A stretch of DNA of 64,000 bases. Source: Sphyrna mokarran (taxonomy: Eukaryota). Below are positions 606-63,200 of this stretch, one piece after another. How positions within the stretch are numbered: position 1 is the stretch's first letter; every line of letters starts with the position of its first letter. Below the pieces are notes generated by a model. The model did not search any database. It was not told the origin of the DNA and was given only the letters and a program-made list of their open reading frames with translations. The stretch spans positions 7,936,001 to 8,000,000 of the forward strand of contig JAGIQG010000020.1 of NCBI GenBank assembly GCA_024679065.1. The letters run 5' to 3'. The position numbers and the translations under genes were made by a program.

Positions 606-654
606 ATGACTGGCTGGGTCCATGTGAACATAGTGTTCATTTTTGGCCTGGCAT
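606..654 (+). CDS. IGLV: IgL cluster 1 leader exon (MTGWVHVNIVFIFGLA, phase 1)
   Basis: ATG 606, hydrophobic signal peptide, donor GTGGGT at 655; joins the V exon in frame to give ...GLAFSNA/AITVSQ. Confidence 0.9.
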
Positions 655-782
655 GTGGGTATTTAAAACGTAGAGAAAATAAGCGTTTTCGAAAAATGTT
701 CCGGTGATTTTTCAAAAGGAAATCTTTTTTCATGATAATTTGAGTAGCTTAACTTTAACATTTGAAACCTGTTTTCTTTCAG

Positions 783-1127
783 TTTCTAACGCGGCGATTA
801 CTGTTAGCCAACCGCCTTCGAAATCTATTTCTGTCGGAGGAACCGTCCAAATAAGTTGCACCTTGTCTGGCGCCAGTTTAGGAAGCACCTACATATCTTG
901 GTACCAGCAGAAATCTGGAAATGCTCCCCGGTATCTGTTTTATCACTACATTGGAAGCAGCACTTACAAAGCCCCGGGAGTTCCAGACCGGTTTTCAGGT
1001 TCGGTATCCGGTAACACGGGAACTTTAAGTATCAGTCATGTTGAATCGGACGACATGGCGGACTATTACTGTGTTTTGTGGAAAAGCACGTGGAACTTCG
1101 GCAGCGGAACCAAGCTGAGTGTTGGCC
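783..1127 (+). CDS. IGLV: IgL cluster 1 germline-joined VJ exon (CDR3 VLWKSTWN, J FGSGTKLSVG)
   Basis: Acceptor tttctttcag ends at 782; Ig V motifs (ISC, WYQQK, DYYC) run directly into FGxGT; donor GTGAGT at 1128; no RSS between V and J. Confidence 0.97.
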
Positions 1128-3132
1128 GTGAGTAAATGCTCTTCTGTTACATTGTTCAAAACTCGCTTCATGTTAACAGCAAAACAGTCACTGGTTATTT
1201 TATTTAGAATAAATTGCAACGTCCTTTTTACAACAGAACCATAAATTCAATTTAACTTACGCAAGACCATCTTGCAAACAACCTAAAACCCGCGTCTCCC
1301 AGTTCTATAGCGCTTTCTGATCTCTCTATCGGACTGCGTTGATTTGTCCTTCCTCAGGAAGAACAGCAAATAGGCGGGAAATCCCTGTACCATCAGATCA
1401 GCGAGATCAATAAAGCGCTTGAATCCTAATCTTGCCATCGAATGACCTTGCAGAGAAAGACAATATGTAGACTCCCCGGTACTGACAATAATAGTTATAT
1501 TGTTATATATCCTGCTTCTTAAAGATGTCATTAAAACGCAGCGCCTGTTTTTTTTTGGAAGTTAGTGCCTGTTGACACAGGTAAATAAGACCACGCGCTA
1601 TTTACTTGAATTGATTGACCCATATAAGTAGTCCATCAAATATAGCAAGAGAAATAGGAGTCAAAAACGGATGGCAAATTTAACTTGCAACGCCCTGCAC
1701 TCTGGGTTCCCTGTTAACTTTTTAGCTAGAATTATTGCACTGAATATACCGGATTTGAATTGAACTGAATATTGATTTAAACAGACAGTGCAGGATGATT
1801 GGCCACTCATGGGGAAATTCTTCCTCTTCGACATTGTTTAATTGTGGAGCACCCAATACAAACTTTGAGTTCACAAAGCCAATGCAAATAAGGCCTGTGT
1901 ACTTCGCTGCTGAAGCGTATGCGCGGTGGCAATTGAAATAACGAATCGCTGCCTGGTCTTCTGTGAATGAATTAGTGAATGAAACATGACCGAGTTTCAC
2001 GATAGCGTAGAGTCAATTCAAAACTAGCATGTTTGGTGAACATATGATCAGTGACATTATTAAATTTTATCATAATGCTCCAACAATTCACATTGCCAGA
2101 TTGTCCTGTGTATTGAGCATGCGCCCCACAGTCAAAAATATCCAGTTATTTCTGCTGTTGAAATCTGATTTGATTTTGTTGCTTACTTCGAGGCAGAGAC
2201 CTGTAATCAGAGAAAGCAGAATGTGACCCAATATAACAATTCCACTGCACTAATAACGATAATCACATTTAACGCTTATCTCTTCCACTAATATTGCAGT
2301 CGAACTCGTCCATTATGTGACCAAAAGACCATCCCTCAGTTCTTAAGCTCGCTTGGAAAGGTGCATCAATATAGCACCTCCATGCCAGCAATATTAAGGG
2401 CGGATTGTAACTTGGGCCAGAGTGTAGCATGGTAGATGCTGGGTCGACGAAAGATTTTACATTTCTCCCGACTCCTGCTGCTGTCAATCTTAATGTAAAA
2501 CTTTCTGTCCACATATATATCACTAGTATTACACTGTTGCACAAAGTCAGGGTTTACATCACCTTCTCTAAGAAAAGATGCACATTTAAGGACACAACTC
2601 GTACTAACGATTAGTTGCGTTTATTTCGTCCTTGCATCTGAAACATAACAGAGCTTTGATGAAATATTTTTATGAATAAAATCCTCAAAATGATCTCCGT
2701 GGCCACTTTTGCTCCCACAGACAGTAACGACACCAATCCCTGGTTGATCTCTTTTCGCACAATGAGGATAGTCTGTCGCCACTTCCTAACACTTAGTGAG
2801 TTAGGTCAATCAATCGATAATCTTGGTTTAATTCTAATTCAAAAGCTGAAACTACCGCCTGAGCCACTTTCCCTTCGCTGGACAGTCAGTCCAGATAGCG
2901 CGGTCAGCTTCCGGTGTGGAGTTGAAATCGTCTGAACCAAGAGAGTGAATCTCACAGGGTGAAACTACCAGAGAAACTGTAACTACACTGCTCAGGGTTA
3001 TAAATATATGTTCATCAGCAAAACATGATGGTAAAACTGATCAACATTTCTTCCCATTGGAACATAATCGGGCAAATTTAATGTATGTTCAGCGTTTCTA
3101 CTTTAATTTCTAATTTTGATTTGATTTTGATT

Positions 3133-4241
3133 AAGGTGCGGGGAGTCGGGGGTAGGGTGTTAGATTGGATAGAGGATTGGTTGTCTAATAGGAAGCAGAA
3201 GGTAGGTATTAATGGGTGCTATTCTGATTGGCAGCTGGTGACCAGTGGAGTGCCCCAGGGTTCGGTGCTGGGGTTTCAACTATTTACCATTTACATAGAT
3301 GATCTGGAGGAAGGGGCTGAGTGCAGGGTGACGAAATTTGCTGATGACACGAAGGTGAGTGGAAAAGCAAATTGCGTGGAAGGTGTGGAAAGCCTGCAGA
3401 AGGATCTGGATAGGTTGAGTGAGTGGGCAAGGACCTGGCAGATGGAGTATAATGTTAGCAAGTGTGAGGTTATCCCTTTGGTAGGAATAATGGTAGGAAG
3501 GATTACTATTTAAACGGTGAAAAGCTGCAGCATGCGACAGTGCAGAGGGGCCTTGTGCACGAATCGCAAAAACACAGTATGCAGGTCAGCAGGTGATTAA
3601 GAAGGCGAATGCAACGTTGGCCTTTATAGCTAGGGGGATAGAATATAAAAGTAAGGAGGTCCTGTTGCAGCTGTATAGGATACTGGTGAGGCCGCAGCTG
3701 GAGTACTGTGTGCAGTTTTGGTCGCCACATTCAAGGAAGGATATATTGGCCTTGGAAGGGGTGCAGAGAAGGTTTACTAGGCTGATACCGGAGATGAGGG
3801 CTTTGGAATATGAGGAGAGACTGAATAGGCTAGGTTTGTACTCTTTGGAGTTTAGAAGGCTGAGAGGGGATCTTATAGAGACGTATAAGATAATGAAGGG
3901 GATGGATATGGTAGAGGTTGAGAGAATCTTCCCTCTTAGCAAAGATAGCAGGACTAGAGGGCACTAGAGGCGGTTCAGATCAGAGTTGCGGAAGAGTTTC
4001 TTCACGCAAAGGGTGGTGAATCTTTGGAATTCTCTGCCTCTTGAGGTGGTGGAGGCTTCCTCGCTAAATATGTTCAAGTCAAGAGTGGATAGGTTTTTGA
4101 TTGACAAGGGAATTAAGGGTTACGGGCAGAAAGCAGGAAAGTGGTACTGAACCACTACAGATTAGCTATGATCTTATTGAATGGCGGGGCAGGCTCGAGG
4201 GGCTGGATGGCCTATTCCTGCTCCTATTTCTTATGTTCTTA
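3133..4241 (+). mobile_element. 5'-truncated CR1-type LINE in the cluster 1 J-C intron
   Basis: RT motifs GVPQGSVLG and KFADD, CR1 C-terminus (LEYCVQFWSP, RGDLIETYK), tail TTCTTATGTTCTTATG; frameshifted; possible TSD TGATT; site is empty in clusters 2-4. Confidence 0.95.
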
Positions 4242-4623
4242 TGATTGCCAACGCAGCTTCTCAATGTGGAAACACGACAGCTAAAATTAACAGCGTTGTT
4301 TTCAACAATATTATACAACAAGTTATCTTTAATGGTATTCTGGGGGATATTACGAAATATGATGAACATGTATTGAATAGTTTTCTATAAAATTGAACAG
4401 AGTTCAACTCTAGTCAGTTACTAAAACTGAATTTCGCTTTTTAAATTCAAATGTCCCATCTATCTCCCTCCTTCACCGTTTCTCGGATGAACGCAGAAAA
4501 TAAAGGGATCTATTTATTGTATTTAATGAATGACCGAATTTAGATCATATGGTTTGGAAAATCATAATGGGTGAAACAAATCAATTCCCTAACATTACTC
4601 AGTTTATTTTGTTTTTAAACCAG

Positions 4624-4946
4624 TACCGCAGAAACCATCTGTCTCCCTCCTCCCACCTTCACTGGATCAAATCAAAGCGAAGGACACGGCGACCCTGGTG
4701 TGTTTGGTGAGCGGTTTTAAACCGGGAGCTGCGGAGATTGAATGGACTGTAGATGGCAGCGTCAGAGGGAATGGGGTTGAGACCAGTCGGATCCAGCAGG
4801 ACGCGGACAACACGTTCAGTGTGAGCAGTTATCTGACTCTGTCAGCCTCAGAGTGGAACTCACACGATCTTTACTCCTGTCTGGTCAAACACGAGGCTCT
4901 AGCAAACCCGCTTCAAACAACCGTCTCCAGACCGAGCTGTATGTAA
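4624..4946 (+). CDS. IGLC: IgL cluster 1 constant exon (lambda/type II-like)
   Basis: Acceptor ...ttaaaccag ends at 4623; C1-set motifs TLVCLVSGF, W, YSCLVKH; ends SRPSCM-stop with the interchain Cys. Confidence 0.96.
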
Positions 4947-5257
4947 ATTCAGAAACTGCTTTCGGCCCAGCTGCGAATGTTTGTTCATTTCTGTTCATTT
5001 CTTTCATGCGATAAAACGGGGGTAGCAATTGATCGTATTTCAGAAATTTAAGAAAATGGTCATCGCGGCTGGAGCTTCGGGTTTTACCACTTGCTCTTTT
5101 AAAAGGGTCTTCGATCGGAACATTGTTCAGTGCTCAGTGAATCCCCGTTGTTTATCAATTTACATTTATGTATCCGATGATCATAATTGAAATGCAACAA
5201 TATGGTTATTGCAATGTAAGTGTCTACTTACTCTTAGACATTTAGATAAAACTGTTC

Positions 5258-5263
5258 AATAAA
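5258..5263 (+). terminator. Polyadenylation signal AATAAA, cluster 1
   Basis: About 310 nt after the stop; same position in all four clusters. Confidence 0.75.
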
Positions 5264-7149
5264 ATAATTAAGATCAAATGCAATACAATACACTCACCGT
5301 ATCTTTTATTAATATTTTCAAGATAAGTCAAATCTAACACTTCTTCGGTATTATTCAGCCTTGCGTAAGATGTTATATGAAAACCTTTTATTGTCAATTG
5401 TCAATTTATTTTGTCAATTTAATTGTCAATTTATTGACAATTGATTGATTAAATCAATCAAATTGATTGATTTAGATTGATTTAATCTAAAGCTAAAATC
5501 AATAGCTTTAGATTCTAAGCTATTGTTCGTACTCCCTGTGGGTGGGATATCCGAGATGGCCGGTACTACACAAGCTTTAGACCAATGTAAGACACACGAA
5601 CCAATACCTCTGTATTAAAGACGTAACGTTATTTAAACCAATGCCGCCAGGACTTCATCAAAGAGTTAAGTAGCTCTGACATAGAGCAACAAAAACCTCT
5701 AGGATGAATCGAACATATTCAATCAAAAATAAATCAATTGTACGTTTTTCTCTTATGAATCGTTTCCGACTTTCAGTAACTTTAAATCAATCATTTTCAA
5801 GATGCACAAATCAATAGTAATACACGTAAATAACGGTATTTAATTAGTCCGAGAAATCTGGAAGGTAAGTCCGTCTTGGCTGACATCAAGTCCTGATTGC
5901 TTAAGTGAGCCCAGAGTTCAAATGAACGCTCTCACGGGTTTCCTTAAAGTTCACTGTACACCCAGCTAAACTCGACACCATGTCTGGACAAGGTATATCT
6001 CTTCTGGACAATGAATAAACTTATTCATGATATATGGTTAGATATTCGATATGTTCCATCCATCCGAAATTTTACTGATGGAACTTGCATATTTTCAAGT
6101 CTAAGATTCTCTCGAAATTTGGCTTCCCGTAATGACTTTTATCTTGACGCTTTGTAGCAAAATGCTAAAGTGAACAATATTCCTTAAAAATCAATAACAA
6201 TACATCCAAAATATCAGCATATGTGTTTTACAATCATAATCATTCGGTTGATTCAGGTACTGCATCTTCTATGTGCAAATTGCTACTTATTAACCGATAA
6301 ACTTATTGTAACAGTCATTTAACTGAATCCTGCTAGTTCTGTCAGTGCCTTAATGTCTACTGGTTCAAAAATCAAAAATCCACTTACACACTCTTTCATC
6401 AAATCTCAGCAATCTCTTTGTTACCCCTTTATAGTGTTTAAAGCTCCTTGTATCTGGCTCCACCCTCTGCTGATTTACACAATAAAGTTATCTGGAAATG
6501 AGACCCATCTCTATTGCAGTCTGGTGGAATATGATTGTTGTAATAGTGAAAGGCTCTTTATCAATTACCTTTATGCATCAGGTAATATTAATTAAAATGC
6601 AGCCAATCAAATCAATCAAGGCAATATGTTCATTATAGCTTCAGTTTTGGGTCAGTGTTAGAATCTCCAAGTAAAACTGATGAATAAATGAACTGACCTA
6701 AGATCAAATGCAATACATTTTTTTCGTGTCTTTTACTGATGAAGAAAATTGGCCAAATCTAATACTTCATCGACATTAGTAAGAGTCATTCAATAAAAAA
6801 GATGCAAAGTTATTCGGAAACAAATTTCACCACTGTTATAGAGTCAGATGAAATACTTAAAGTCATAACACTTAACAGCCCTTTGGCTCACAGTGACTGC
6901 ACCGACCATCACGCACCAACTATTGTAATCCCATTTCCATATACTGTATATTCAAAAGAGTTGTAAGATATGAATTTTGGGATTTTCAGAGTTCAGAAAA
7001 GGAGGACCAAGAAATTCATGAGGTCAGAGCAAAGATTTGACTGGCAAGAGTCGTAAATACAGCTCGTAACTTCATCTAAACATATACAGGCAAGAAGTGA
7101 TCCATGGATATAAATGTGCGAAGTTTCGCTGCAAAAACTGGTGAAATCT

Positions 7150-8025
7150 TAAGGAATCGCAAAAGAGAATTAATCCAAAGATAATTAGAAATCAATGGTT
7201 CAGCAAGAACGAAGTTAAATAAATCAGTATGAGACAAGAAGTTGTAGATGTGAAAATAATGAGAATAAATCGTGACAAATCCCATGGGACTGAGGTTCCA
7301 CAGCATATAATAATTGCAAGGAGATAATGTAGTCAAACTTCCGGAATCCCTTGATCCTGGAACATTTCTCGAAGTTTGGAAGGTCGCAAAGTCAATCCCG
7401 ATATTTACGAAATGAGGGAAAAGAATTGTGGAATCAGAAGACAGTGAGTCTAGCACCAGGGACAGGCAAAAATCCAGAACCTCTTTCTTGGAGGGGTCAT
7501 AATAGGGCACTTTGAAAGTCGGTTCTTTTGAGGATGTTACTGGAAAGAAGAATAAGGTGGGATCAGCGAGTTTATTCGTATTTTTACAAAAAAAACCTAT
7601 AAATCAGGCACCAACACACACGTTTCATAGATAGAATTCGGACACGTGGGATTGGATGCAATATACGAGCCTGAATTTAAATGGTGAATAGACAGAAAAC
7701 AGGAAACAGGAATAAATTGATCATTATCGCGTTGGCCACGTTTAGAGAGCGGTGTTTGGACAGGATCAAGACTTGCACCCCCACAATGTGCAACATATTT
7801 ATTATATTTCAGTTTTCTACGCAGAGAACCGTGGAATCGCAGCCACTGTGATTTTCAAGCCGGGAATTTATTTTGGGTTATTAAGCCAATTACCGAATTT
7901 GGGGATAGCGCAGGAAGGTGGTCTTGAGGTAGATGATCTGTTCATGACCTTACTGAATGGCGCAACAGATTCGAAGGGCAAAAGGCCATCTTCCTGCTCC
8001 TCTTTCTTATGTCCTTATGTCCAGC
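7150..8025 (+). mobile_element. Old degenerate CR1 LINE fragment (paralogues at about 23400-25020 and 46400-47280)
   Basis: Decayed ESLDPGTFLEVWKVAKSIPIFTK*G resembles CR1 SLDxGxVPEDWKxANVxPIFKKG; ends with a CR1 tail (cttatgtccttatgt). Boundaries approximate. Confidence 0.75.
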
Positions 8026-10005: not shown

Positions 10006-10186
10006 CGTGGTGCAGTGAGTCGTGTTCGTTTTAAACATCCCAATTCCTGAAAATGGGGCAATGTGTAAATACCAGGTCACCAAATGTGACCTACATTTGG
10101 TGTAGGTGAATGTGACCTGGTATTTACACATTGCCCCATTTTCAGGAACTGGGATGTTTAAAACGAACACGACTCACTGCACCACG
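10006..10186. repeat. Inverted repeat with 75-bp arms (10006-10080 / 10112-10186), one mismatch and a 31-nt loop
   Basis: Direct reverse-complement match of the two arms; the paralogue at about 33241-33330 has only one arm. Confidence 0.97.
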
Positions 10187-10220
10187 TGATGCCGTGGCTT
10201 CAGTGGAAGAAAATGCCACA

Positions 10221-10495
10221 CCGCAGTCCAAACAGCAGGTGGCGAGAGTGCTGCAAATTTGCAAGTACATGCTCCGGGGAATTCATTAACATGCGGGAAA
10301 TCTCAGACCCAATTTGAGAAATCAGAAAGATCAGCAAAATACGTGGCCCGGAACTTCCTGCCCGAATGTTAGTTCAAGTCGATTTTGCCCCGCACATGCG
10401 CATCGGAACTACACGGAAAAAAACCCTGCGCATGCGCAGTCAAGGAGCACCAATTTTGAACTTCCGATTGAGGTTTGCAAAGATGCCGACATGGA
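10221..10495 (+). promoter_or_regulatory. Candidate insulator/promoter-like module (CTCF-like core, kB-like, ETS, NRF1 and YY1-like motifs)
   Basis: ACAGCAGGTGGCGA 10232-10245; GGGAAATCTC; CCGGAACTTCCTG; perfect TGCGCATGCGCA 10427-10438; AAGATGCCG; locally CpG-rich; conserved at 33364-33630. Confidence 0.5.
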
Positions 10496-10999
10496 AGCGT
10501 TTTGAGCTGCAGTTGTGCTGAAACGTACGTCGCCTGCGCTGATGTTAAGTTGTTTTTTACCCTTATTTATTTGCACATTTATTATTTGGTGTAGCTGCAG
10601 CGAGTAGAGGCAGCAGAAATTCCACAAGTAGAATTTTTGTAAAATATTTTTTAAAAGATCGTTAAAATATTTGGAATACAAGGAAAGTAAGAAAAAGATT
10701 TTAACTATTTTATTATGACAATAATTCTAGTAAAAAGTACGTCCCTATATCACACGGTCATGGTACAGTATTTTAGTGTCTGGAACAAATTTCAGCTTTT
10801 GGATGTTCGAATATATTTGAAACATTGTCGAACTCTATCGTAAAAGTCTCCCTGATTTAACGTTACAGAATACAGTGCAGATTGAAAATCTGGAGGCATT
10901 TTCCACCACCGCTGGAAAAGTATGCTTTTTGCTTTATTCTTAACTGAAGTTTTTTGAACTTTTGAACTGGTGTGGAAATGTGAGTCTATTTGTAAAATC

Positions 11000-17816: not shown

Positions 17817-17900
17817 AACCAATCTGATTGGTTGAAATGAAAAGACTAATTTGCATTCCAACACAAGGTGACACTTCCTTGGTGACAGGGATTATTAAAA
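17817..17900 (+). promoter_or_regulatory. IgL promoter, cluster 2 (inverted CCAAT pair 17817-17833, octamer 17849-17856, TATA-like 17893-17900)
   Basis: AACCAATCTGATTGGTT, TAATTTGCAT and TATTAAAA upstream of ATG 17978. Confidence 0.88.
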
Positions 17901-17977: not shown

Positions 17978-18026
17978 ATGACTGACTGGGTCCATGCGAT
18001 CATTGTGTTCATTTTTGGTCTGGCAT
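17978..18026 (+). CDS. IGLV: IgL cluster 2 leader exon (MTDWVHAIIVFIFGLA)
   Basis: ATG, signal peptide, donor GTGAGT at 18027. Confidence 0.93.
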
Positions 18027-18160: not shown

Positions 18161-18508
18161 TTTCTAACGCGGCGATTACAGTCAGTCAAACGCCTTCGAA
18201 ATCTACTTCTCTCGGAGGAACCGTCCACATAAGTTGCACCTTGTCTGGTGTCAGTTTAGGAAGCAGTAGCATATATTGGTACCAGCAGAAATCTGGAAAT
18301 GCTCCCCGGTATTTGCTTTATCACGATGCTGGAAACAGCATCATCAGAGCCCCGGAAGTTCCAGGCCGGTTTTCAGGTTCCATATCCGGTAACACGGGAA
18401 CTTTAAGTATCAGACAAGTTGAAATGGAGGACACCGCAGAGTATTACTGTGCTATATGGAAAAGCAGTATGTACAACTTCGGCGGCGGAACCAAGCTGAG
18501 CGTTGGCA
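18161..18508 (+). CDS. IGLV: IgL cluster 2 germline-joined VJ exon (CDR3 AIWKSSMYN, J FGGGTKLSVG)
   Basis: Acceptor tttcttccag; canonical Cys/Trp/Cys; in-frame FGGGT; donor GTGAGT at 18509. Confidence 0.97.
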
Positions 18509-20922: not shown

Positions 20923-21245
20923 GTCCGCAGAAACCATCTGTCTCCCTCCTCCCACCTTCATCGGATCAAATCGCAGCGAAGAACACGGCGACCCTGGTGT
21001 GTTTGGTGAGCGGTTTTAAACCGGGAGCTGCGGAGATTGAATGGACTGTAGATGGCAGCGTCAGAGGGAATGGGGTTGAGACCAGTCGGATCCAGCAGGA
21101 CGCGGACAACACGTTCAGTATGAGCAGTTATCTGACTCTGTCAGCCTCAGAGTGGAACTCACACGAGCTTTACTCCTGTGTGGTCAAACACGAGACTCAA
21201 GCAAACCCGCTTCAAACAAGCATCTCCAGATCCAGCTGTATGTAA
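20923..21245 (+). CDS. IGLC: IgL cluster 2 constant exon
   Basis: Acceptor ends at 20922; PQKPSVSLLPPSSDQ...YSCVVKHETQANPLQTSISRSSCM-stop. Confidence 0.97.
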
Positions 21246-26429: not shown

Positions 26430-29246
26430 TCGTTGGAACAGTATGTGGCTAGCCCGACTAGAGAAGGGGCAATATTGGATTTAGTTCTGAGCAATGAGCC
26501 AGGACAGGTGGTTGATGTTGTAGTGGGGGAACATGTGGCTAACAGTGACCACAATTCTGTCTACTTTAGGATGGAAAAGGATGCTTGTTGCCCTAGGGGC
26601 AGGGTGCTGAATTGGGGGAAGGCTAACTACGGTCGAATTAGGCAGGAACTTAGGGAAACTGATTGGGAACGGTTGTTTGAGGGTAAGTCCACGCTAGGCA
26701 TGTGGGACTCTTTCAAGGGAATACTGAAAATGTTGCAAGATAAGTACATGCCAGCCAAGAGGAAAGATGGGAAAGGTAGGATTAGAGAGCCGTGGATTAC
26801 TAGGGATATTGAGGACTTGGTTAGGAAGAAAAGAGAAGCGTATGATAGGTCGAAGCAGCTGGAAACCGATACAGCATTGAAGGAATATAGAGAGAGTAGG
26901 AGGGAGCTCAAACAGGGAGTTACAAGAGCAAAAAGGGGGCATGAAATGATTTTGGCGGATAGGATTAAGGAAAACCCAAAGGCTTTTTATTCCTATGTTA
27001 GGAATAAAAGGATGGTTAGAGGAAAAATCGGACTTCTTAGGGACAGAGGAGGGGAACTGTGCTTAGAGCCCGAGGGAATGGCGGAGATCCTGAATGAATA
27101 CTTTGTGTCGGTATTCACGAAGGAGAGGGGCTTGTTGACAGTTCCTGTCTCTGAGGGAGCTGTGGACCAGTTGAGGGAAATATCCATACCGATGGAAGAA
27201 GTGTTAGAGCTTCTAGGTAGCATTAAAACTGATAAATCTCTAGGGACTGATGGCATTTATCCCAGACTGCTTAGAGAGGTGCGAGGTGAAATTGCTGGGC
27301 CTCTGACGCAAATCTTTGTCTCTTCCATGGACACAGGTGAGGTCCCAGAGGACTGGAGAATAGCTAATGTTGTACCGTTGTTTAAAAAGGGTGATAGGGA
27401 TAACCCTGGAAATTATAGGCCGGTGAGTTTGACGTCAGTGGTAGGGAAGCTGTTGGAGGGGATTCTTAGAGATAGGATGTATAAGCACTTAGAGCGTTGC
27501 GATCTGATTAGGGATACACAGCATGGATTTGTTAAGGGGAGGTCGTGCCTTACAAATCTGGTAGAATTTTTTGAGGAGATGACGAAAACGGTGGACGAAG
27601 GGCGAGCCGTTGATGTTGTCTATTTGGATTTTAGTAAGGCGTTTGACAAAGTCCCTCATGGGAGGTTAGTCGAGAAGATCAAGGCAAATGGGATACAAGG
27701 ACAGGTAGCTAGATGGATAAGTAACTGGCTTGGTAATAGGAGACAGAGAGTAATAGTGGAAGGGTATTGCTCTAGCTGGAGGTCGGTCACTAGTGGTGTG
27801 CAGCAGGGCTCGGTACTGGGACCTCTTCTATTTGTAATATATATAAATGACTTGGAAGAGGGAGTAAGTGGAGTGATCAGCAAGTTTGCAGACGATACAA
27901 AGATGGCTGGACTTGTGGATAGTGAGGAGCATTGTCAGGCGCTGCAGCAGGACATAGATAGGCTGGTAGCTTGGGCAGACAGATGGCAGATGGAATTCAA
28001 TCCTGATAAATGTGAGGTGATGCATTTCGGGAGTAAAAATGTAGGGGGGAGGTATATGATAAAGGGTAGACCTATTAAGAGTATAGAAACGCAGAGGGAC
28101 CTGGGAGCACAGGTGTACAAGTCTCTGAAGGTGGCAGAGCAAGTGGAGAAGGTTGTGAAGGAAGCATATAGTATGCTAGCCTTTATAGAAAGGGGTATAG
28201 AGTACAAGAGCTGGCCTTTAATGTTGCAGTTGTATAAAACGCTGGTTAGACCTCATTTGGAATACTGTGTCCAGTTCTGGTCGCCTTACTACCGGAAAGA
28301 CGTGGAGACTCTGGAGAGAGTGCAGAGGAGGTTTACCAGGATGCTGCCTGGTATGGAAGGTCGGAGTTACGAGGAGAGATTAGGCAAATTGGGACTGTTT
28401 TCCTTAGAAAGACGTAGACTTAGAGGAGATCTGATAGAGGTGTACAAGATTTTGAAGAGGATAGATAGAGTAAACAGGGTTAAGCTTTTTCCTAGGATGG
28501 ACTCAAATAGCATAGGGGTCACGGGCTTAGGGTGAGGGGGGTAAGGTATAATTTGGATGCTAGATGGAGTTTTTTCACACAGAGGGTGGTGGGGGTATGG
28601 AATGCGCTGCCAAGTAAAGTGGTGGAGGCAGGTACTCTGGAGTTACTTAAGAAATACTTAGATGGGCACATGAACAGAATAGGAATGGAGGGGTATAGAA
28701 AACTGATTTAAAATAGGGATCATGAGCCTTGGGAGGCCCTGGGAAGTGTGTGAATAGATGATGATATTGATGTACTTGTTTTTATCCTACAGGTGCTTTG
28801 GTCCACATTGTTGTCTAACGAGGGGCATACACGCGATGGGTCGTGAGAGGGCTGCTCTTGGACCTTTTTCGAGAGTATCCTACTGCTTCACATCGTTAGT
28901 GTACGCTTGACCTGGACCATCTGATGGGCAACACGACAGCGCAGTGATTATAGCTGTGCTGTGCAGATACATGGATTTGGGCCTGTGTCTGTGGGAGTTT
29001 GCGCATTCTCCCTGTGCTTGCGTGGGTTTTTTCCGGGAGTTCCAGTTTCCTCCCACATCCCAAAGATGTGCTCTTAGGCTAATTGGCAAAACAAATTCTC
29101 CCTAAATTGTCTCAAATTTTGTTTTTAATCCATAGATCTATAAACATGGACAGGGATCGCGTGTGGAGGTGGGAACATCGGGGTGGCGGCGCGGGCTCAT
29201 TGGGCCGAAGGGCCTGTTTCCCATGCTGTTTTGTTCTTTGTTCTTT
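26430..29246 (+). mobile_element. Young 5'-truncated CR1 LINE with a long 3' region, inserted in a Penelope-type repeat (TSD GTTCAA)
   Basis: ORF2 followed by about 540 nt of 3' region ending (TGTTCTT)n; GTTCAA at 26424-26429 and 29247-29252; the two flanks rejoin as one minus-strand repeat. Confidence 0.95.
26433..28711 (+). pseudogene. CR1 ORF2: end of APE endonuclease (LDLV, SDH) plus complete RT; open for about 690 codons, then a 1-nt deletion near 28513
   Basis: [52 protein letters not shown]. The sister copy (54707-55078) shows the true C-terminus, which corresponds to the stop at 28709-28711. Confidence 0.93.
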
Positions 29247-29274
29247 GTTCAACAGATTCATTTGGTAGAACAAG

Positions 29275-40462: not shown

Positions 40463-40546
40463 AAGCTGTCTCATTGGTTGAAATGAAAAGACTAATTTGC
40501 ATTCCAACACAAGGTAACACCTTCTTGGTAACAGGGGCTATTAAAA
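40463..40546 (+). promoter_or_regulatory. IgL promoter, cluster 3 (octamer 40495-40502, TATA-like 40539-40546)
   Basis: TAATTTGCAT and TATTAAAA; only the ATTGG half of the CCAAT pair is kept. Confidence 0.88.
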
Positions 40547-40625: not shown

Positions 40626-40674
40626 ATGACTGACTGGGTCCATGCGATCATTGTGTTCATTTTTGGTCTCGCAT
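40626..40674 (+). CDS. IGLV: IgL cluster 3 leader exon
   Basis: MTDWVHAIIVFIFGLA, donor GTGAGT at 40675. Confidence 0.93.
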
Positions 40675-40808: not shown

Positions 40809-41156
40809 TTTCTAACGCGGCGATTACAGTCAGTCAACCGCCTTCGAAATCTACTTCTCTCGGAGGAACCGTCCAAATAAGTTGCACCTTGTCTGGCGCC
40901 AGTTTAGGAAGCAGCAACATATATTGGTACCAGCAGAAATCTGGAAATGCTCCCCGGTATCTGCTTTATCACGATGCTGGAAGCAGCACTAATAGAGCCC
41001 CGGGAGTTCCAGACCGGTTTTCAGGTTCGGTATCCGGTAACACGGGAACTTTAAGTATCAGTCAAGTTGAATCGGAGGACACCGCAGAGTATTACTGTGC
41101 TATATGGAAAAACAACTTGTGCTACTATGGCGGCGGAACCAAGCTGGGCGTTGGCA
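40809..41156 (+). CDS. IGLV: IgL cluster 3 germline-joined VJ exon (CDR3 AIWKNNLCY, atypical J YGGGTKLGVG)
   Basis: Acceptor cctttcag ends at 40808; intact V motifs; donor GTGAGT at 41157. Confidence 0.96.
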
Positions 41157-43773: not shown

Positions 43774-44096
43774 GTCCGCAGAAACCATCTGTCTCCCTCC
43801 TCCCACCTTCATCGGATCAAATCACAGCGAAGAACATGGCGACCCTGGTGTGTTTGGTGAGCGGTTTTAAACCGGGAGCTGCGGAGATTGAATGGACTGT
43901 AGATGGCAGCGTCAGAGGGAATGGGGTTGAGACCAGTCGGGTCCAGCAAGAGGCGGACAACACGTTCAGTATGAGCAGTTATCTGACTCTGTCAGCCTCA
44001 GAGTGGAACTCACACGAGCTTTACTCCTGTCTGGTCAAACACGAGGCTCTAGCAAACCCGCTTCAAACAACCGTCTCCAGATCCAACTGTATGTAA
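43774..44096 (+). CDS. IGLC: IgL cluster 3 constant exon
   Basis: Acceptor ends at 43773; ends YSCLVKHEALANPLQTTVSRSNCM-stop. Confidence 0.97.
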
Positions 44097-53909: not shown

Positions 53910-56900
53910 CTCATTACCCAAAAGCAGCAACTGCTAGGCATTTTAAACTGCCGTTGTGTCACCTGGAGTTCGGCCTCTCCATCAGGCTCCATATTGACCT
54001 CGTCCAGCTTCCCCATTTCCGAAGGCAAGTCATCTTCGCGGTGAATGCCTGGTCTACGCTGGAGGGAAAGGTTTTGGTATTCACAACACGTGACAAAAAT
54101 CTTTGTCACTTTCCCTGGTGCATACACGCCATCTGACCTGCCAGTGAAAACATCACTTCGGTATGCCAATTACAAAGAACAAAGAACAAAGAACAAAACA
54201 GCACGGGAAACAGGCCCTTCGGCCCAACGAGCCCGCGCCGCCACCCCGATGTTCCCATCTCTACCCACGATCCCTGTCCATGTTTATAGATCTATGGATT
54301 TAAAAACCAAATTTGAGACAATTTAGGGAGAATTTGTTTTGCCAATTAGCCTAAGAGCACATCTTTGGGATGTGGGAGGAAACCAGAGCTCCCGGAGAAA
54401 GCACGGGGAGAATGCGCAAACTCCCACAGACACAGGCCCAAATCCATGTATCTGCACAGCACAGCAATACTCACTGAGCTGTCATGTTGCCCATCAGAAG
54501 GTCCAGGTCAAGCATACACTAACAACGTGAAGCAGTAGGATACTCTCAAAAAAGATCCAAGAGCAGCCCTCTCATGACCCATCGTGTGTATGCCCCTCGT
54601 TAGACAACAAGGTGGACCAAAGCACCTGTAGGATAAAAACAAGTACATCAATATCATCATCTATTTACACACTTCCCAGGGACTCCTAAGGCTTATGATC
54701 CCTATTTTAAATCAGTTTTCTATACCCCTCCATTCCCATTCTGTTCATGTGCCCATCTACGTATTTCTTAAATACCTCCAGAGTACCTGCCTCCACCACT
54801 TTACTTGGCAGCGCATTCCATACCCCCACCACCCTCTGTGTGAAAAAACTTCCTCTAGCATCCAAATTATACCTTAACCCCCTCACCCTAAGCCCGTGAC
54901 CCCTCGTGCTATTTGAGTCCATCCTAGGAAAAAGCTTAACCCTGTTTACTGTATCTATACCCCTCATAATCTTGTACACCTCTATCAGATCTCCTCTAAG
55001 TCTACATCTTTCTAAGGAAAACAGTTCCAATTTGCCTAACCTCTCCTCGTAACTCAGACCTTCCATACCAGGCAGCATCTGGTAAACCTCCTCTGCACTC
55101 TCTCCAGAGTCTCCACGTCCTTCCGGTAGTAAGGCGACCAGAACTGGATGCAGTATTCCAAATGAGGTCTAACTAATGTTTTATACAACTGCAACATTAA
55201 AGGCCAGCTCTTGTACTCTATACCCCTTCCTATAAAGACTAACATACTATATGCTTTCTTCACAACCTTCTCCACTTGCTCTGCCACCTTCAGAGACTTG
55301 TTCACCTGCACCCCGAGGTCCCTCTGCGTTTCTATACTCTTAATAGGTCTACCCTTTATCGTATACCTCCCCCTTACATTCTTTCTCCCGAAATGCATCA
55401 CCTCACATTTATCAGGATTGAATTCCATCTGCCATCTGTCTGCCCTAGCTACCAGCCTATCTACGTCCTGCTGCATCGCCTGACAATGCTCTTCACTATC
55501 TGCAAGTCCAGCCATCTTTGTATCATCTGCAAGCTTGCTGATCACTCCACTTACTCCCTCTTCCAAGTCATTTATATATATTACAAATAGAAGAGGTCCC
55601 AGTACTGAGCCCTGCGGCACACCACTAGTGACCGACCTCCAGCTAGAGCAACACCCTTCCACTATTACTTTCTGTCTCCTATTACCAAGCCAGTTACTTA
55701 TCCATCTAGCTACATGTCCTTGTATCCCATTTGCCTTGACCTTCTCAACTAACCTCCCATGAGGGACTTTGTCCAACGCTTTACTAAAATCCAAACAGAC
55801 AACATCAACGGCTCGCCCTTCGTCCACTGATTTCGTCACCTCCTCAAAAAATTCTACCAGATTTGTAAGGCACGACATCCCCTTAACAAATCCATGCTGC
55901 GTATCCTTAATCAGATCGCAACGCTCTAAGTGCCTATACATCCTATCTCTAAGAATCCCTTCCAACAGCTTCCCTACCACTGACGTCAAACTCACCAGTC
56001 TATAATTTCCAGGGTTATCCCTACTACCCTTTTTAAACAACGGTACAACATTAGCTATTCTCCAGTCCTCTGGGACCTCACCTGTGTCCAAGGAAGAGAC
56101 AAAGATTTGCGTCAGAGGCCCAGCAATTTCACCTCGCACCTCCCTAAGCAGTCTGGGATAAATGCCATCAGGCCCAGGAGATTTATCAGTTTTAATGCTA
56201 CCTAGAAGCTCTAACACTTCCTCCTTCGGTATGGATATTTCCCTCAACTGGTCCACAGCTCCCTCAGAGACAGGAGCTGTCAACAAGCCCCTCTCCTTCG
56301 TGAATACCGACGCAAAGTATTCATTCAGGATCTCCGCCATTCCCTCGGGCTCTAAGCACAGTTCCCCTCCTCTGTCCCTAAGAGGTCCGATTTTTCCTCT
56401 AACCACCCTTTTATTCCTAACATAGGAATAAAAAGCCTTTGGGTTTTCCTTAATCCTATCCGCCAAAATCATTTCATGCCCCCTTTTTGCCCTTCTAACT
56501 TCCTGTTTGAGCTCCCTCCTACTTTCTCTATATTCCTTCAATGCTGTCTCGGTTCCCAGCTGCTTCGACCTATCATGCGCTTCTCTTTTCTTCCTAACAG
56601 TCCTCAATATCCCTGGTAATCCACGGTTCTCTAATGCTACCTTTCCCCTCTTTCCTCTTGGCTGGCACGTACTTATCTTGCAACATTTTCAGTATTCCCT
56701 TGAAAGAGTCCCACATGCCTAGCGTGGACTTACCCTCAAACAACCGTTCCCAATCAGTGTCCCTAAGTTCCTGCTTAATCCGACTGTAGTTAGCCTTCCC
56801 CCAATTCAGCACCCTGCCCCTAGGGCAACAAGCATACCTTGACCATCACCTGACGAGTTGCTATCTGAGCACAGTTGTAACGCTCCGGTGCTTCACGTTT

Positions 56901-57000
56901 GTCTTGCGGAATTTTGTCGTCAGTCGTGTCCCCATTCGGTATCCCTTATCACCTAGTAATCATCCTGTAATTCCAGGTAATAATGTCATGGTGAGATATT
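53910..57000 (-). pseudogene. Harbinger transposase relic, copy 3, split into about 53910-54171 and 56836-57000 by a CR1 insertion
   Basis: The flanks rejoin to match 38090-38130 (tatgccaat-taccttgaccatcacctgacgag). Confidence 0.8.
54172..56835 (-). mobile_element. Young 5'-truncated CR1 LINE, same subfamily as 26430-29246 and with the same long 3' region
   Basis: ORF pieces 56594-56812, 55054-56607 and 54707-55078 are near-identical to the 700-aa ORF; different 5' truncation, own tail, possible TSD TAC; FADD is changed to LADD. Confidence 0.95.
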
Positions 57001-59457
57001 ACACTGAACTCTCAATAATATGCATGTGTTGTACCTTTCAGCGCTTGGAATAAGTCGATTAAGTTTCATCAATAATTTTCCAAATTTACAAAGTTACAAC
57101 AATTACACACAACTCTACATAAATACTCATTAATACTTGAACAAGATTAGGCTGTTAAGCATAACACAATAAATTCAACAGATATTAAAATTTGAAAGAA
57201 CTACGAAGTTACAAATGTTAACTATAGCATATAATTCTAAACTTACAACGTCAAAGTTGTTGCATGATGCGAAATAAAATGATTTCCGTTAACCATCACA
57301 AGTTAAACTGCATTGATTCAATAAACACGGCTGAATGATTTAATACTTATTCTTTCCTTGCATAGTGGGACTTTGAATTTAGTGAATGGAGCTGATAATT
57401 TTAATTCCTAGGGAGGTGCATAGTTCCATACCGATAATTGTTCAACCTTAATGTTTTACCTTACTGCTTTAAGGTCGTGTGTCCTTTATTCCTTGTCAAG
57501 TTTGACTGTGGTGCTAAGGTCAAGTCATGTGATGAGTTGTGTCCTAAAGTTCAGCACAACACCAAGTTGGGTTGACATACATGGATTGTGTGCACACTCA
57601 TCTAAAATTAAAAATTAAACTTCAATTTGTGGCGATGGTGAGGCCACATATGGAGTATTTTGTGCAGTTCTGTTGTGAGTATCTGCAGAAGGAAGTCCTT
57701 GCTATCGAGCGAATAGAGTGAAGGTTTATCAGGATGATTTCTGGGAAGGAAAGTCTGTCATACAGAGACAGACTAAGTCAGTTAGGATTATATTCACTGG
57801 AATTTAGAAGAGTGAAAGGGGATCTCATAGAAACTTATGAAATTCTACCAGGGTTAGGTAGGGTAGGTTCAGAATGAATGTTTCTAATATTTGAAACTAG
57901 GGGGTCATATTTTCTGGAAAAAGGGTAAACCTTTTAGAAATGAGGTGAGGAGAAAGTTCTTCACCCAGAGGGTGGTGAATGCATGGAATTCACTACCACA
58001 GAATGTAGTTGACGCCAAAACGTTCTCTGATTTTAAGAATATATTTGATATAGTTCTTAGGGCTAAAGGTATACAGGGATATTGGGGGAACAGGTCATCC
58101 AGTCAGGATTCAACAGGATATTGAATTGGATGATCAGCCCTGGTCACAATAAATGGTAGAGCAGGCCCGAAGAGCCCAACGGCCTACTCCTGCTTCTAGT
58201 TTCTATGTTTCCCTGATATCTCGACTCTCCACACTCTCTCGATTCTGTATGGCAAACACTGTCAGCTATGGGTGGCAGACTGATGCTTCTGTATTTTCTT
58301 CGGTTAAGTTGTGCTTTTAATCTTCAGCTAAAGTTATGGTTACCTTTCGCTGTTCAAAGTTTGTGTTCCATTCAACTGTTTTTATTTATCTTTGTGTTAT
58401 TCATTGAAAATTTAGAATTGAATCTTTCTCTACATTGGCTGAGCTTAATTCGACTCTGTTGTGCCTGTTCTATAGTTGCTGTATCATTGTAACATATCAA
58501 AAATAAAGTTATTAACATAAAGTTATTAATGAGTTGCAAAACGTTAAAGATTTCAAAACATTGCGAATTAACACAATGTTGCTTTCATGTTGAAGTATTA
58601 ACATTTTTTTCAACGAGTTTTTGATGATAAAATAAATGCTGGAAAATAGACTTTATATTTTGATTTGTCATCACCTCCTCTCTGTCTACTCTTTGAACTC
58701 TCCTTGTCAATCTTCCATATTTCAATGAACTAATCTTTAATTCATTAACAATTCAAAGAGTGGTGACCTCATTTACTCAGACTCTGATAGTAGGGCAACA
58801 CAGTGTCCGAGGAATTAATGAAACTATATCCTTCCTTATATTCTAGCAAATTGTTTACCTCAGGTGTGCACTGTGGTATAGTAGTTAACACTACTGCCTC
58901 AAAGCGCCAGGGACCCGGGTTCAATTGCAGACGCGGGTCACTATCAGTATGAAGTTTTCATATTCCCCCGTGTCTGTTTGTGTTTTCGCTTTGTCTCCCT
59001 TCAAACTCTAAAAATGTGCAGTTTAACTTGATCCTGTCATGCAAAGCTACCCCTTACTGGCAGCACCACTACCAGGGATTACTGGGCCTGGGTGGAATTG
59101 TCCGCGTAGTTTTGATGGACCAAAAGGCGTCTAGGGATTCTATGATTTCACCAGCGTTCGCAGATTTTACACAACTACAGCAAAATTGTGTTATTTCTGT
59201 ACACCAATCCACTTACAAGAAGATAAATCTTGTAATTTGCCTACCTGATTCTTTGTACCTGTTCTACACTGCAGTCTCACTCGCCATCAATATTTATAAA
59301 TTGCATTTGATCCTCTATTTACAGGAATACATTTCGAAGTAACCATGATAATGGTAAGCTTTTCAAAACATTGGAAGGTTTAGGTAAACAAATTCAAAGA
59401 CCACAATAGAAACAAGAAACTATTAGAAATACTCAACACAGCCTATGCGGAGAAGAG

Positions 59458-59503
59458 TGGCTCAACTGATGACGGAGCAGCGCTGCGAAAGCTGGTGATG
59501 CCA
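59458..59503 (+). ncRNA. Minimal hammerhead-like motif, more degenerate copy
   Basis: TCAA-CTGATGA-C-GGAGC-AGC-GCTGC-GAAA-GC-TG-GTGA. Confidence 0.6.
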
Positions 59504-59773
59504 AATAAACCTCTTCGAATTTAACCTGGTGTTGTGAGACTTCTTACTGTGCCCACCCCACTCCAACACCGGCATTTCCACATTTGTGGAGAAGGAAAGA
59601 GTTCAGGTTTCAGGTCGATCTCCTTTCATGAAACAAACTTTAGAAATGCTTTGCAGTTTTAGTCAACTTTAATTATTGGAAGTAAATAAAGTTTTAGCTC
59701 TGAGACGGGAAAATTAGCAGCAATAGCAATCGCCAAAAACCGGCTGATAACAATCATCGCCACAGGATTTAGG

Positions 59774-59856
59774 AACCAATCTGATTGGTTGAAATGAAAA
59801 GATTAATTTGCATTCCAACACAAGGTAACACCTTCTTGTAACAGGGGCTATTAAAA
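59774..59856 (+). promoter_or_regulatory. IgL promoter, cluster 4 (CCAAT pair 59774-59790, octamer 59806-59813, TATA-like 59849-59856)
   Basis: AACCAATCTGATTGGTT, TAATTTGCAT and TATTAAAA. Confidence 0.88.
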
Positions 59857-59935
59857 GGCAGAGAGAGAGATTGCGACTGTGAACCCATCTTGACAAATAA
59901 CTGGCAGAACTCGGTACTTCGGCAAACTTTTCACA

Positions 59936-59984
59936 ATGACTGACTGGGTCCATGCGATCATTGTATTCATTTTTGGTCTGGCAT
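59936..59984 (+). CDS. IGLV: IgL cluster 4 leader exon
   Basis: MTDWVHAIIVFIFGLA, donor GTGAGT at 59985. Confidence 0.93.
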
Positions 59985-60120
59985 GTGAGTATTTAAAACG
60001 TAGGGTCGATGTAAATGTGCATTTTCGAAGACTATTTCGGTGATTTTTCGAAAGGCAATTTTTTTTCTGTAATTAATTTGAGTAGCTTAACATTAATATT
60101 TGGAATCTGTTTTCTTCCAG

Positions 60121-60468
60121 TTTCTAACGCGGCGATTACAGTCACTCAACCACCCTTGAAATCTACTTCTCTCGGAGGAACCGTCCAAATAAGTTGCACC
60201 TTGTCTGGCGCCAGTTTAGAAAGCACCTACATATTTTGGCACCAACAGAAATCTGGAAATGCTCCCCGGTATTTGCTTTCCCACTCTGCTGGAAGCAGCA
60301 CTAATAGAGCCCCGGGAGTTCCAGACCGGTTTTCAGGTTCGGTATCCGGTAACACGGGAACTTTAAGTATCAGTCAAGTTGAATCGGAGGACACCGCAGA
60401 GTATTATTGTGTTCTGTCGGCAAGCGGCATGTACAACTTTGGCAGCGGAACCAAGCTGAGCGTTGGCA
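60121..60468 (+). CDS. IGLV: IgL cluster 4 germline-joined VJ exon (CDR3 VLSASGMYN, J FGSGTKLSVG)
   Basis: Acceptor tttcttccag ends at 60120; V motifs intact (WHQQK); donor GTGAGT at 60469. Confidence 0.97.
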
Positions 60469-61049
60469 GTGAGTAAATTCCCTTCTGTTACATTGTCCAA
60501 AAGTCGCTTCCGGTTAATAACAAAACATTCCCTGGGTATCTTATTTTAATAAATTCCAATGTTCTTTTAACCCAACCACGAATTCAATTTAAGCCATATA
60601 AGGCGATCTGCAAATAATGTTACTATTTGTTGCCTTCCAATTCGATAATGTTTTCTGATCTATCTGTCGGTCTGCATTGAATTGTTTTAGTGGAGGCAGA
60701 ACAACAAGCAGCCGTAAAATTCTTGTCTCATCATATCAGCGGGATGAACAAAACGCTTTAATCTTCATGTGTCATCACATGAACTTGCAGAGAAAGAAAA
60801 CATGTAGACTCCTGGTAATACCAAGAAATATTTCAGTGATTTTAAATCCCGTTACTTAAAGATTTTACCAAATCACAGTGCCTGTTGACTCAAGTAAATA
60901 GTGAGCACTTGCGCCAGTTACTCGACCTCGCGTAGCAATAGCCCCTCATAAATAGCCCATCAAATATAGCAAAAGAAATAGGAAGGCAAAAAATGGATGA
61001 TAAATCAAACTAACTGCAACACTCTGCTCTCGGACCCCCTGCTAACTTA

Positions 61050-61336
61050 CAAAGTAAAGTATATTAATTAGTCACAAGTAAGGCTTACATTGCAATGAAG
61101 TCACTGTGAAATTTCCCAAGTCGCCACACTCCAGCGCCTGTTCGGGCTAATACACCTGAATAGCACATCTTTCCGACTGTGGGAGGGAACCAGAGCACTC
61201 GGAGAAAACCCGCGCAGACACGGGGAGAACGTGCAAATTCATCACAGGCAGTGACCCTAGGCGGGAATCAAGCCCGGTTTCCTGATGCTGCGAGGCAGTA
61301 ATGCTAAACACTGTGCCATCTCTTCATCGCTGCCTC
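61050..61336 (-). mobile_element. V-SINE in the cluster 4 J-C intron
   Basis: Close match to 19097-19376 at the same site. Confidence 0.87.
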
Positions 61337-62877
61337 TCTTCAGATGGAATTATTGCGGCAGTCTATATTCCGGATTTGAATCGAAGTGAGATTCAACCCG
61401 GAATGTTGATTTGAACAGGTAGTACAGGATGATTGGCCACTTATGATGAAACATTTTCTACTGAACATTGTTTAAATGTACAGCACCCAAAGCAAAGCTT
61501 TGAATTCACACGGCCACTGTAAAAAAGGCCTGTCTACTTCTCTGCTGAAGCTGGGTTGCAAGTAAAATAGGGAATCGCTTATTGGCCTTCTCTGTAATGA
61601 ATGAAACATGATCAAGTTTCACGACAACGCAGAGTCTTTTTAAAACTAACATTGTGTGAACATGTGATCAGTGACATTGTTAAATTTTATCATTGCGCTA
61701 CAACAATTCACACTGGCAGATTGTCATGCGCCCCACAGACAGAAGTCTCCAGTTATTTCTGCTGTTGAAATCTATCTGAGTTTGTTGCTTATTTCGAGGC
61801 AGAAACCCCATAATCAGAGAACGCAGAATGTGACCCAGTGTATCAATTCCACTGTGTTAATGATGTTCATCGTATTGAACACTGACGTCTTCCACTAATT
61901 ATGCAGTCGAACTCGTCCACTATAAGACCTAAAAGAGTGTCTCTAGGGCTAAACCTCGCGCAGAAAGTTGCATCAATATAGCGCCACCATAGTAGCAATA
62001 TGAGTGCGGATTGGAACTTGGCCCAGACTGTAATAGTTTTATTGTCGAGATCCCCCAAAATGATCTCCGCGGTTACTTTTTTTCCATAGACAGTAATGAG
62101 ACCAATCATTGGTTAATCTGCTTTCGCACAATGAGGATAGCCTGTCAATACTTCCTCCAAAACTGTAATACCTAGTGTGTTCGGCCCATCAATTGAGGAG
62201 CTTAGTTTAATTCTAATCCAAAAACTGTAACCACCGCCTGAGCCACTTTCCCTTCGCGGGACTGTCAGTCCAGATAGCGCGGTCAGCTTCCCGTGCGGAG
62301 TTGAAACCATCTGAGCCGAGAAAGGAGAACCTCACAGGGTGAAACTGCCAGTGAAACTGTAACTACACTGCTCAGCATAACATAAAATTACATCAGTAAA
62401 AACATGATGGTAAAACTGATCAACATTTCTTTCCATGGGAACACAATAGAGCAAATTTAATGCATGTTCAAACGTTTCTAATTCTATTTCTAATTTTAAC
62501 TGGTAACGCAGATTTTCCATGTGGAAACACGGCGGCTAAAAATAATACCGTTATTTTCAATAACGTGTTATGAACCAAGGGATCTTTAATGGTATTCTGG
62601 GAGACATTGCGAATAGTAAAATTGTTGTCTATAAAATTGAACAGAGTCAACTCCAGTTCAACGCCAGTCAGTCATTAAAACTGAACTTCGCTTTTTAGAT
62701 CCAAATGTCTCATCGATCTCCCTCTCTCACCTTTCCACCGATGAAAGCACAAAGTAAAGGGATCTATTTATTGTATTTAATGAATGACAGAATTTGGATC
62801 ATATTGTTTGGAAAATCATAATGCATCAAACAAATCAATTCCTCAACACTACTCAACCTATTTTGTTTTAAAACCAG

Positions 62878-63200
62878 GTCCGCAGAAACCATCTGTCTCT
62901 CTCCTCCCGCCTTCATCGGATCAAATCACAGCGAAGAACACGGCGACCCTGGTGTGTTTGGTGAGCGGTTTTAAACCGGGAGCGGCGGAGATTGAATGGA
63001 CTGTAGATGGCAGCGTCAGAGGGAATGGGGTTGAGACCAGTCGGATCCAGCAGGACGCGGACAACACATTCAGTGTGAGCAGTTATCTGACTCTGTCAGC
63101 CTCAGAGTGGAACTCACACGAGCTTTACTCCTGTCTGGTCAAACACGAGGCTCTAGCAAACCCGCTTCAAACAACCGTCTCTAGATCCAGCTGTATGTAA
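62878..63200 (+). CDS. IGLC: IgL cluster 4 constant exon
   Basis: Acceptor ends at 62877; ends HEALANPLQTTVSRSSCM-stop. Confidence 0.97.

Follow-up and report, generated by a model that had tools for sequence, protein, structure and literature searches.

The window described here, the whole 64,000-nucleotide stretch of Sphyrna mokarran DNA from 7,936,001 to 8,000,000 of contig JAGIQG010000020.1 (C772 below; assembly GCA_024679065.1), carries four immunoglobulin (Ig) light-chain genes, all on the + strand, each made up of a leader (L) exon, an exon in which the variable (V) and joining (J) segments are already fused, and a constant (C) exon. These genes are quite probably tandem duplicates within the lambda locus, descended from one old join made in germ cells through RAG, the recombinase named after the recombination-activating genes, in a locus that has kept one cluster unjoined, likely in the ancestral, rearranging state. 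That split cluster lies outside the window, about 1 Mb away. A shade better than even, in our view, are the chances of a broader proposition, that carcharhiniform sharks keep one lambda cluster that RAG still rearranges, a living relic of ancestral shark lambda at the edge of a joined locus. The four joined genes alone are textbook material and largely known: an earlier note on this DNA called germline-joined VJ typical of cartilaginous-fish lambda (type II) genes, and so it is in the literature (PMC4279169, PMC5192425). The new point is the split cluster.

In that cluster, a leader precedes V, which ends at a heptamer (1 mismatch), followed by a 23-base spacer and a nonamer (2 mismatches), and J is preceded by a nonamer (1 mismatch), a 12-base spacer and a heptamer (2 mismatches). 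These recombination signal sequences (RSSs) sit exactly at the end of V and the start of J; the intervening DNA amounts to 258 bases, signals included, and the C exon follows 5.3 kb further on. Over 672,002 bases, sites as lax as the two signals number 2 and 2, at thresholds that are the split gene's own mismatches and were set after the gene had been seen. The V-23/12-J order is the reverse of that found in the kappa and sigma genes of this genome, and is the lambda order of other vertebrates. PMC5985310 is consistent with this. Searching the genome at the DNA level with the split V-J returned only the cluster itself, and hence no donor for the intervening DNA; a target-site duplication was looked for at the coding ends, and none was found.

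At this cluster, reads from 4 of the 24 runs listed were examined, all as contigs, and that two of these runs, X2 and X24, are RNA is a guess. X1 matches 2400–3875 with 0 differences and may be source data. X2 comes from the same organism but a different sample, and gives a 1,227-base contig that spans V acceptor to J donor, shows 0 differences and keeps the intervening DNA; the leader is covered too, which points to a spliced, unrearranged transcript. X1 and X2 share with the genome a stop at Trp41 of V. X7, from another organism, runs unbroken through the intervening DNA, is thus split, and has Trp41 in place. X24, from a third organism, has the leader spliced to V, Trp41 present, no cover from the end of V through J, and 621 further bases—a pattern that fits a transcript in which V and J have been joined.

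A search with the split V for homologs of near length found none; one that admitted longer lengths found them. Proteins of Mustelus, Hemiscyllium, Chiloscyllium, Stegostoma, Rhincodon, Heptranchias and Callorhinchus share one clade with the split gene (100/98). In the catshark model P0167, the 26 residues before J match the intervening DNA at 16 of 26 positions, a level reached by 0 of 20,000 shuffles, and because the model reads into J through this matching DNA, the catshark likely has a split gene, too. Other relatives look joined. Their third complementarity-determining region (CDR3) is 10 aa long in 9/9 carpet-shark and sevengill models having a J (P0171, which ends before J, was left out of the count), and 11 aa long, ending ENDDARA, in 4/4 of the elephant-shark records tabulated. 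Gene models can, however, show a join over a gene that is split: the changes in X7 give the residues of P0160 at 4/4 amino-acid-changing sites checked, yet X7 is split and P0160 is drawn joined.

A further feature of the split cluster, 81 bases upstream of J (L066:3395–3483), is an AG acceptor in the phase of the leader and with the frame open into J; the same open frame into J is present in P0167. Splicing of the leader to this acceptor is predicted to give leader, unique region and J-C, like mammalian lambda5, an arrangement that chance can also give. Among the read joints displayed, none joins the leader to this acceptor.

In the window, V and J are fused in frame in all four genes, and no RSS-like site was found in or around any of the four junctions, even at lax thresholds, just as the earlier note had it. 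The note's coordinates, its four CDR3s and its spacing of 17–23 kb are correct as well, the distances from unit start to unit start being 17,372, 22,648 and 19,310 bases. The spliced models of units 1–4 are 238, 239, 239 and 239 aa long with 0 internal stops, the splice borders are GT..AG at 8/8 introns, an octamer lies upstream of every unit (4/4), and the V and C exons encode V-set and C1-set domains (Pfam) with the canonical cysteines present. 'Intact', the note's word for these genes, is accurate for the reading frames and splice sites; it overlooks unit 3, in which Tyr replaces the hallmark J-Phe118, turning FG into YG, and a sixth, unpaired Cys sits in CDR3. 'RAG-independent' needs similar trimming: it describes the use of the four genes, not their origin, nor the locus as a whole. 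Elsewhere in the assembly, 13/13 kappa loci fetched (C1548) and 4/4 sigma-type loci fetched (C838) are split and have 12-bp RSSs, and because they are, we take the assembly to be of germline type.

On sequence grounds the window genes are shark Ig lambda (type II), the identity that the note had given them. Kappa forms a separate clade in both the V and the C trees, the best light-chain domain matches in the PDB are of lambda type, and exons of TOP3B, the anchor gene of the IgL/lambda region in tetrapods (PMC9614664), occur at about 7.00 Mb of the same contig, about 0.92 Mb from the window. NCBI's automatic label for the basking-shark ortholog, P0126, is lambda-1-like. The lengths of CDR1 and CDR2 (8/7 residues) fit sigma-2 (PMC5985310) and lie inside the lambda range as well; genes at 8.73–8.94 Mb with C exons 92–94% identical to those of the window nonetheless have a shorter CDR2, which suits the variable lengths of lambda and is unlike a fixed pattern. 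No in-genome sigma-2 outgroup was identified in the eight stretches checked, and no named lambda-2 is among 149 rows of homologs, of which only some are named. A Mustelus asterias protein shares 94% identity with one V of the locus, and the V family at 8.7–8.9 Mb presumably resembles sandbar shark lambda. A J-C fragment near-identical to the window C exons has been deposited as an Aeromonas veronii protein (P0002, from a 652-base contig); that record is probably shark contamination.

Whole units of the window self-align at 75–88%, and are thus whole-unit duplicates. The 55 informative sites among them break up into 24 runs (p=0.00017), a mosaic as expected from gene conversion; the earlier note, which credited the CDR3 differences to mutation and a 3-nt indel, was right about the 3-base gap and left this exchange between copies out. 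Variable columns are scarce in the C exons (25/322, versus 306/1144 in non-coding DNA; p=9e-15) and abundant in CDR3 (12/24, versus the same baseline; p=0.018). Mean pN/pS, the ratio of nonsynonymous to synonymous differences, comes from six non-independent pairs with few sites, and stands at 1.65 for CDR3, 1.11 for the CDRs taken together, 0.58 for the frameworks and 0.69 for C. Such values hint, weakly, that germline CDR3 is possibly under diversifying selection. Between the window genes and the 8.73–8.94 Mb family, about 0.8 Mb away, V domains are about 50% identical, and the C exons, at the 92–94% identity already given, show differences at 7% of sites overall and at 16% of fourfold sites. 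The flanks of these C exons are at shuffle level in 3/3 loci tested, homology ending at the exon edges, and we infer that C has undergone exon-limited homogenization across the two V families. One frameshifted gene of the other family, at 8,958k (L068:5783–6106, −), has a CDR3 that ends SSRMYN and matches that of unit 2 (SSMYN; window 18,450–18,490) at 18/27 bases; exchange of CDR3/J between the families is possible.

How many germline joins lie behind the four genes? The earlier note argued for a single one from the alignment of the CDR3s at the DNA level. Align they do, with one 3-base gap, and pairs of the three 9-codon CDR3s have 21, 19 and 15 of 27 bases in common, where shuffling gives 6.9 on average. 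We rejected alignability as a test, nevertheless. The split gene draws 8 of its CDR3 codons from V and about 3 from J, and with such contributions, joins made independently between one V and one J would align as well. So do the CDR3s of an unrelated V family, for the 9-codon CDR3s of the distant 8.9 Mb family match those of the window at 10–18/27 bases; the CDR3 of the 8,043k gene matches at 14–17/27. The conclusion itself appears sound on other grounds: phylogenetic bracketing and the basking-shark ortholog make it likely that the four genes descend from one ancestral join, older than the duplications. The window genes form a clade (98/91) nested among joined genes, their nearest sisters at 8,018k, 8,043k and 8,060k are all joined, and P0126, from a lamniform, has a 9-aa CDR3, AIWKNNIFN, to which AIWKNNLCY of unit 3 is the closest in the window. 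The catshark model P0159 has a 9-aa CDR3 like that of the 8,043k gene. Separate joins of four closely related split V-J clusters, with the CDR3 differences being junctional, would account for the difference in CDR3 length (8 vs 9) and for CDR3 being the most variable part, and five such joins occurred in nurse-shark kappa (PMC2193156). We consider this quite improbable, given the joined sisters and the 9-aa architecture shared with the basking shark; moreover, the differences spread over V-derived codons 1–5, beyond the joint itself, and no split paralog of the window V family was found in searches of this genome. The window joints cannot be traced to the split gene, because that gene belongs to a different V family.

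What the split cluster represents can be read in several ways. It might be a dead relic that rearranges in no species, the X24 transcript coming from a copy joined in the germline. The stop in V of this genome, the unrearranged spliced form that is the only one seen in this species (X2), the imperfect heptamers and the incomplete V of P0167 all speak for this, and it has to be taken seriously; even so we regard it as doubtful, since the two nonamers and the two CAC triplets are preserved, with exact spacings of 23 and 12, V is open at Trp41 in X7 and X24, and the intervening DNA is conserved to the catshark. Alternatively, the cluster might belong to the lambda-2 isotype and merely adjoin the lambda locus. 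It has the V-23/12-J order, a CDR2 of 3 residues and a single copy, traits of the kind described for lambda-2 (PMC5985310), and it makes up a separate, deep clade that reaches back to the elephant shark. This we think unlikely. The CDR1 of 8 residues compares with 5–7 in lambda-2; in gar, separate chromosomes carry lambda-2 and lambda (PMC5985310); the distance from the split cluster to a joined lambda V is 21 kb; the C exon of the cluster falls in a group with those of the locus at 8,039k and 8,064k (95/91); and the best single-domain PDB matches of the cluster are human V domains of the lambda-6 type. Linkage, C tree, CDR1 length and PDB matches together favor true lambda.

There is also the reverse course of events, in which a joined ancestor was split again in carcharhiniforms by re-insertion of an RSS-flanked piece, through RAG transposition or conversion from a split gene since lost. 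The question was already posed in PMC2193156. Split copies are found only in this species, the X7 organism and the catshark, and the outgroup models, with their constant CDR3s, look joined, as re-splitting would have it; but models can draw a join over a split gene, as P0160 does. The coding ends lack a target-site duplication, nothing else in the genome matches the intervening DNA, lambda in other vertebrates has the 23/12 order too, and in the papers covered germline joining is recurrent and re-splitting is unreported. Re-splitting is, in our estimation, very unlikely.

The reading we prefer, an old join behind the window genes and an unjoined cluster left in the same locus, has its own difficulties, and the following points weigh against it. 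In this genome, the V of the split cluster is a pseudogene, and the heptamers of the split gene deviate at 1 (V) and 2 (J) positions. In X24 the joint and J are not displayed, the run's RNA status is guessed, and the join could be a germline one. Relatives of constant CDR3 length look joined, so that an ancestral split state needs several independent joins. The joined state of the window genes is read from the assembly, and the ortholog CDR3s are those of NCBI gene models rather than genomic DNA. The 8/7 pattern of CDR1 and CDR2 equals that of sigma-2 (PMC5985310), and the V and C trees are without a named nurse-shark NS3, sigma-2 or lambda-2 reference. The excess of variable columns in CDR3 is modest, the non-coding baseline is conversion-shaped as well, and the pN/pS over all CDRs is 1.11.

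If the preferred reading is right, a joined gene would need only transcription and splicing for its expression, and would have a fixed primary CDR3, to which somatic hypermutation would add further diversity. The join would predate the split between Lamniformes and Carcharhiniformes, and gene conversion would since have kept C uniform while the germline CDR3s diverged, perhaps under diversifying selection. In B cells of species with an intact V, RAG would act on the 23/12 pair of the split cluster and cut it there.

Table 1. Light-chain gene features of the window (positions within the window) and lambda-type V genes elsewhere on C772 (positions on the contig)
Feature	Position	Strand	Remarks
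Unit 1 octamer promoter element	472..479	+	
Unit 1 leader exon	606..654	+	
Unit 1 joined VJ exon	783..1127	+	CDR3 VLWKSTWN (8 aa); Pfam V-set
Unit 1 C-lambda exon	4624..4946	+	Pfam C1-set
Unit 2 octamer	17849..17856	+	
Unit 2 leader exon	17978..18026	+	
Unit 2 joined VJ exon	18161..18508	+	CDR3 AIWKSSMYN
Unit 2 C-lambda exon	20923..21245	+	
Unit 3 octamer	40495..40502	+	
Unit 3 leader exon	40626..40674	+	
Unit 3 joined VJ exon	40809..41156	+	CDR3 AIWKNNLCY; Tyr for J-Phe118; unpaired Cys
Unit 3 C-lambda exon	43774..44096	+	
Unit 4 octamer	59806..59813	+	
Unit 4 leader exon	59936..59984	+	
Unit 4 joined VJ exon	60121..60468	+	CDR3 VLSASGMYN
Unit 4 C-lambda exon	62878..63200	+	
Lambda-type V gene	8,018k		Joined; two stops
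Lambda-type V gene	8,043k		Joined
Lambda-type V gene	8,060k		Joined
Twelve lambda-type V genes	8.74–8.96 Mb		One frameshifted
Split lambda-type cluster, V-23RSS/12RSS-J	C772:8,979,701–8,986,160 (L066:2702–9161)		One V gene, at 8.98 Mb

Altogether, C772 has at least 20 lambda-type V genes, and among those found 19 are joined and 1 is split; the count is a lower bound, 150/390 candidates having been scored and 8.11–8.68 Mb having been covered by searches rather than by direct reading. A fifth unit adjoins the window at 8,018k–8,021k (L010, L038), with an open C exon 91% identical to that of unit 1. A degenerate orphan C exon occurs at 8,722k (L069:9448–9729), with no V within 9.4 kb upstream. 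A V-set gene made of one exon, which ends in a J-like GSGSRL and is only 23% like lambda V, occurs at 8,991.7k (L086:4743–5384), 5.6 kb downstream of the split cluster. Flanking genes include a helix-loop-helix exon about 26 kb before the window (L079:3495–3878, −) and an exon of leucine-rich-repeat type at 8.71 Mb (L098:9207–9902). Between the window genes lie pieces of long interspersed nuclear elements (LINEs), which we take to be of CR1 type, one with a reverse transcriptase frame of 714 aa. Two LINE copies, at window positions 26,570–29,250 and 54,177–56,847, are 95% identical in opposite orientation, and inserted after the unit duplications. A 181-base stretch at 10,006–10,186 matches its own reverse complement at 91%, and is possibly a small foldback element. 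On other contigs, an IgH-rich one (C994:512k–515k; L112, −) has a joined VJ exon with one C1 exon that gives no good match to lambda, kappa or sigma-type genes, and C1548:111.43–111.44 Mb (L108–L109, −) has one VJ-type exon and then three C1 exons, the layout described for UrIg (PMC12227049).

Two reviews state that all cartilaginous-fish lambda genes are joined. In the literature searched, we found no report of a split shark lambda gene; most subscription papers lie outside it, and prior publication is possible. A further lambda-like light chain of sharks has reportedly been described; no such account turned up in the literature searched. The main text and one supplement of the elephant shark genome paper contain nothing on lambda joining (its Ig supplementary notes may bear on it), nor do the parts drawn on of PMC8188548, PMC13433984, PMC6795676 and PMC3308330 mention a split shark lambda. 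Shark light-chain isotypes number four, according to PMC12227049 (2025), and PMC5985310 reports that no lambda-2 was found in cartilaginous fish.

If the split cluster is what it appears to be, it overturns the generalization that all lambda genes of cartilaginous fish are germline-joined, and split and joined orthologs of one lambda gene become comparable across sharks and chimaeras. Two origins are conceivable for joined shark lambda genes, as relics of an ancestral VJ exon that was never split or as products of RAG in germ cells; a split shark lambda gene with the 23/12 order of tetrapods would favor the second origin, and its state could be traced from order to order. A closely packed array of joined genes, their CDR3s distinct, is also a convenient system in which to study light-chain exclusion in single cells without rearrangement. 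Iacoangeli 2017, on isotype exclusion among shark light chains, reportedly found lambda transcripts in kappa-bearing cells. A purely transcriptional choice, which the earlier note took to be needed, is one option for exclusion, rather than a consequence of genes being joined. Activation of one cluster at a time, in the manner of olfactory receptors, has been proposed before for skate Ig clusters, as PMC2435157 reports, and the same paper states an alternative, heavy–light pairing as a filter.

The closest known system is the Ig lambda, or type II, of cartilaginous fish, including nurse shark NS3 and sandbar shark (PMC4279169, PMC5192425, PMC2193156). The window, likewise, has one L-VJ-C set per cluster, and has in common with those clusters the in-frame V-J fusion, the absence of an RSS, the octamer promoter and the multiple copies. 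Differences are apparent, too. Nurse shark lambda has six loci (PMC5192425), while the V genes here number at least 20 and belong to several V families; IgM clusters are spaced 120 to >200 kb apart (PMC5192425), versus 17–23 kb in the window; and the C772 locus departs from known joined shark lambda in having one cluster split. Nurse shark kappa (NS4; PMC2193156) resembles the C772 locus in mixing split and joined genes within one isotype, its recurrent, RAG-like joins being attributed to RAG in germ cells, but most NS4 genes are split and the joins are recent, whereas on C772 19/20 of the genes found are joined and the joins look old. Skate type I (sigma-2; PMC2192082) also comprises many all-joined clusters with germline differences concentrated in the CDRs. 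It is a different isotype, however; the window C matches that of genes with a short CDR2, in a locus near TOP3B. Finally, lambda-2 of ray-finned fish (PMC5985310) and the 8.98 Mb cluster are alike in their split V-J, lambda-type RSS order, one to two copies and short CDR2. They differ in the length of CDR1 (8 here, 5–7 there), and the 8.98 Mb cluster is linked to the lambda array and has a C that goes with those of the locus, distinctions drawn from published descriptions of lambda-2.

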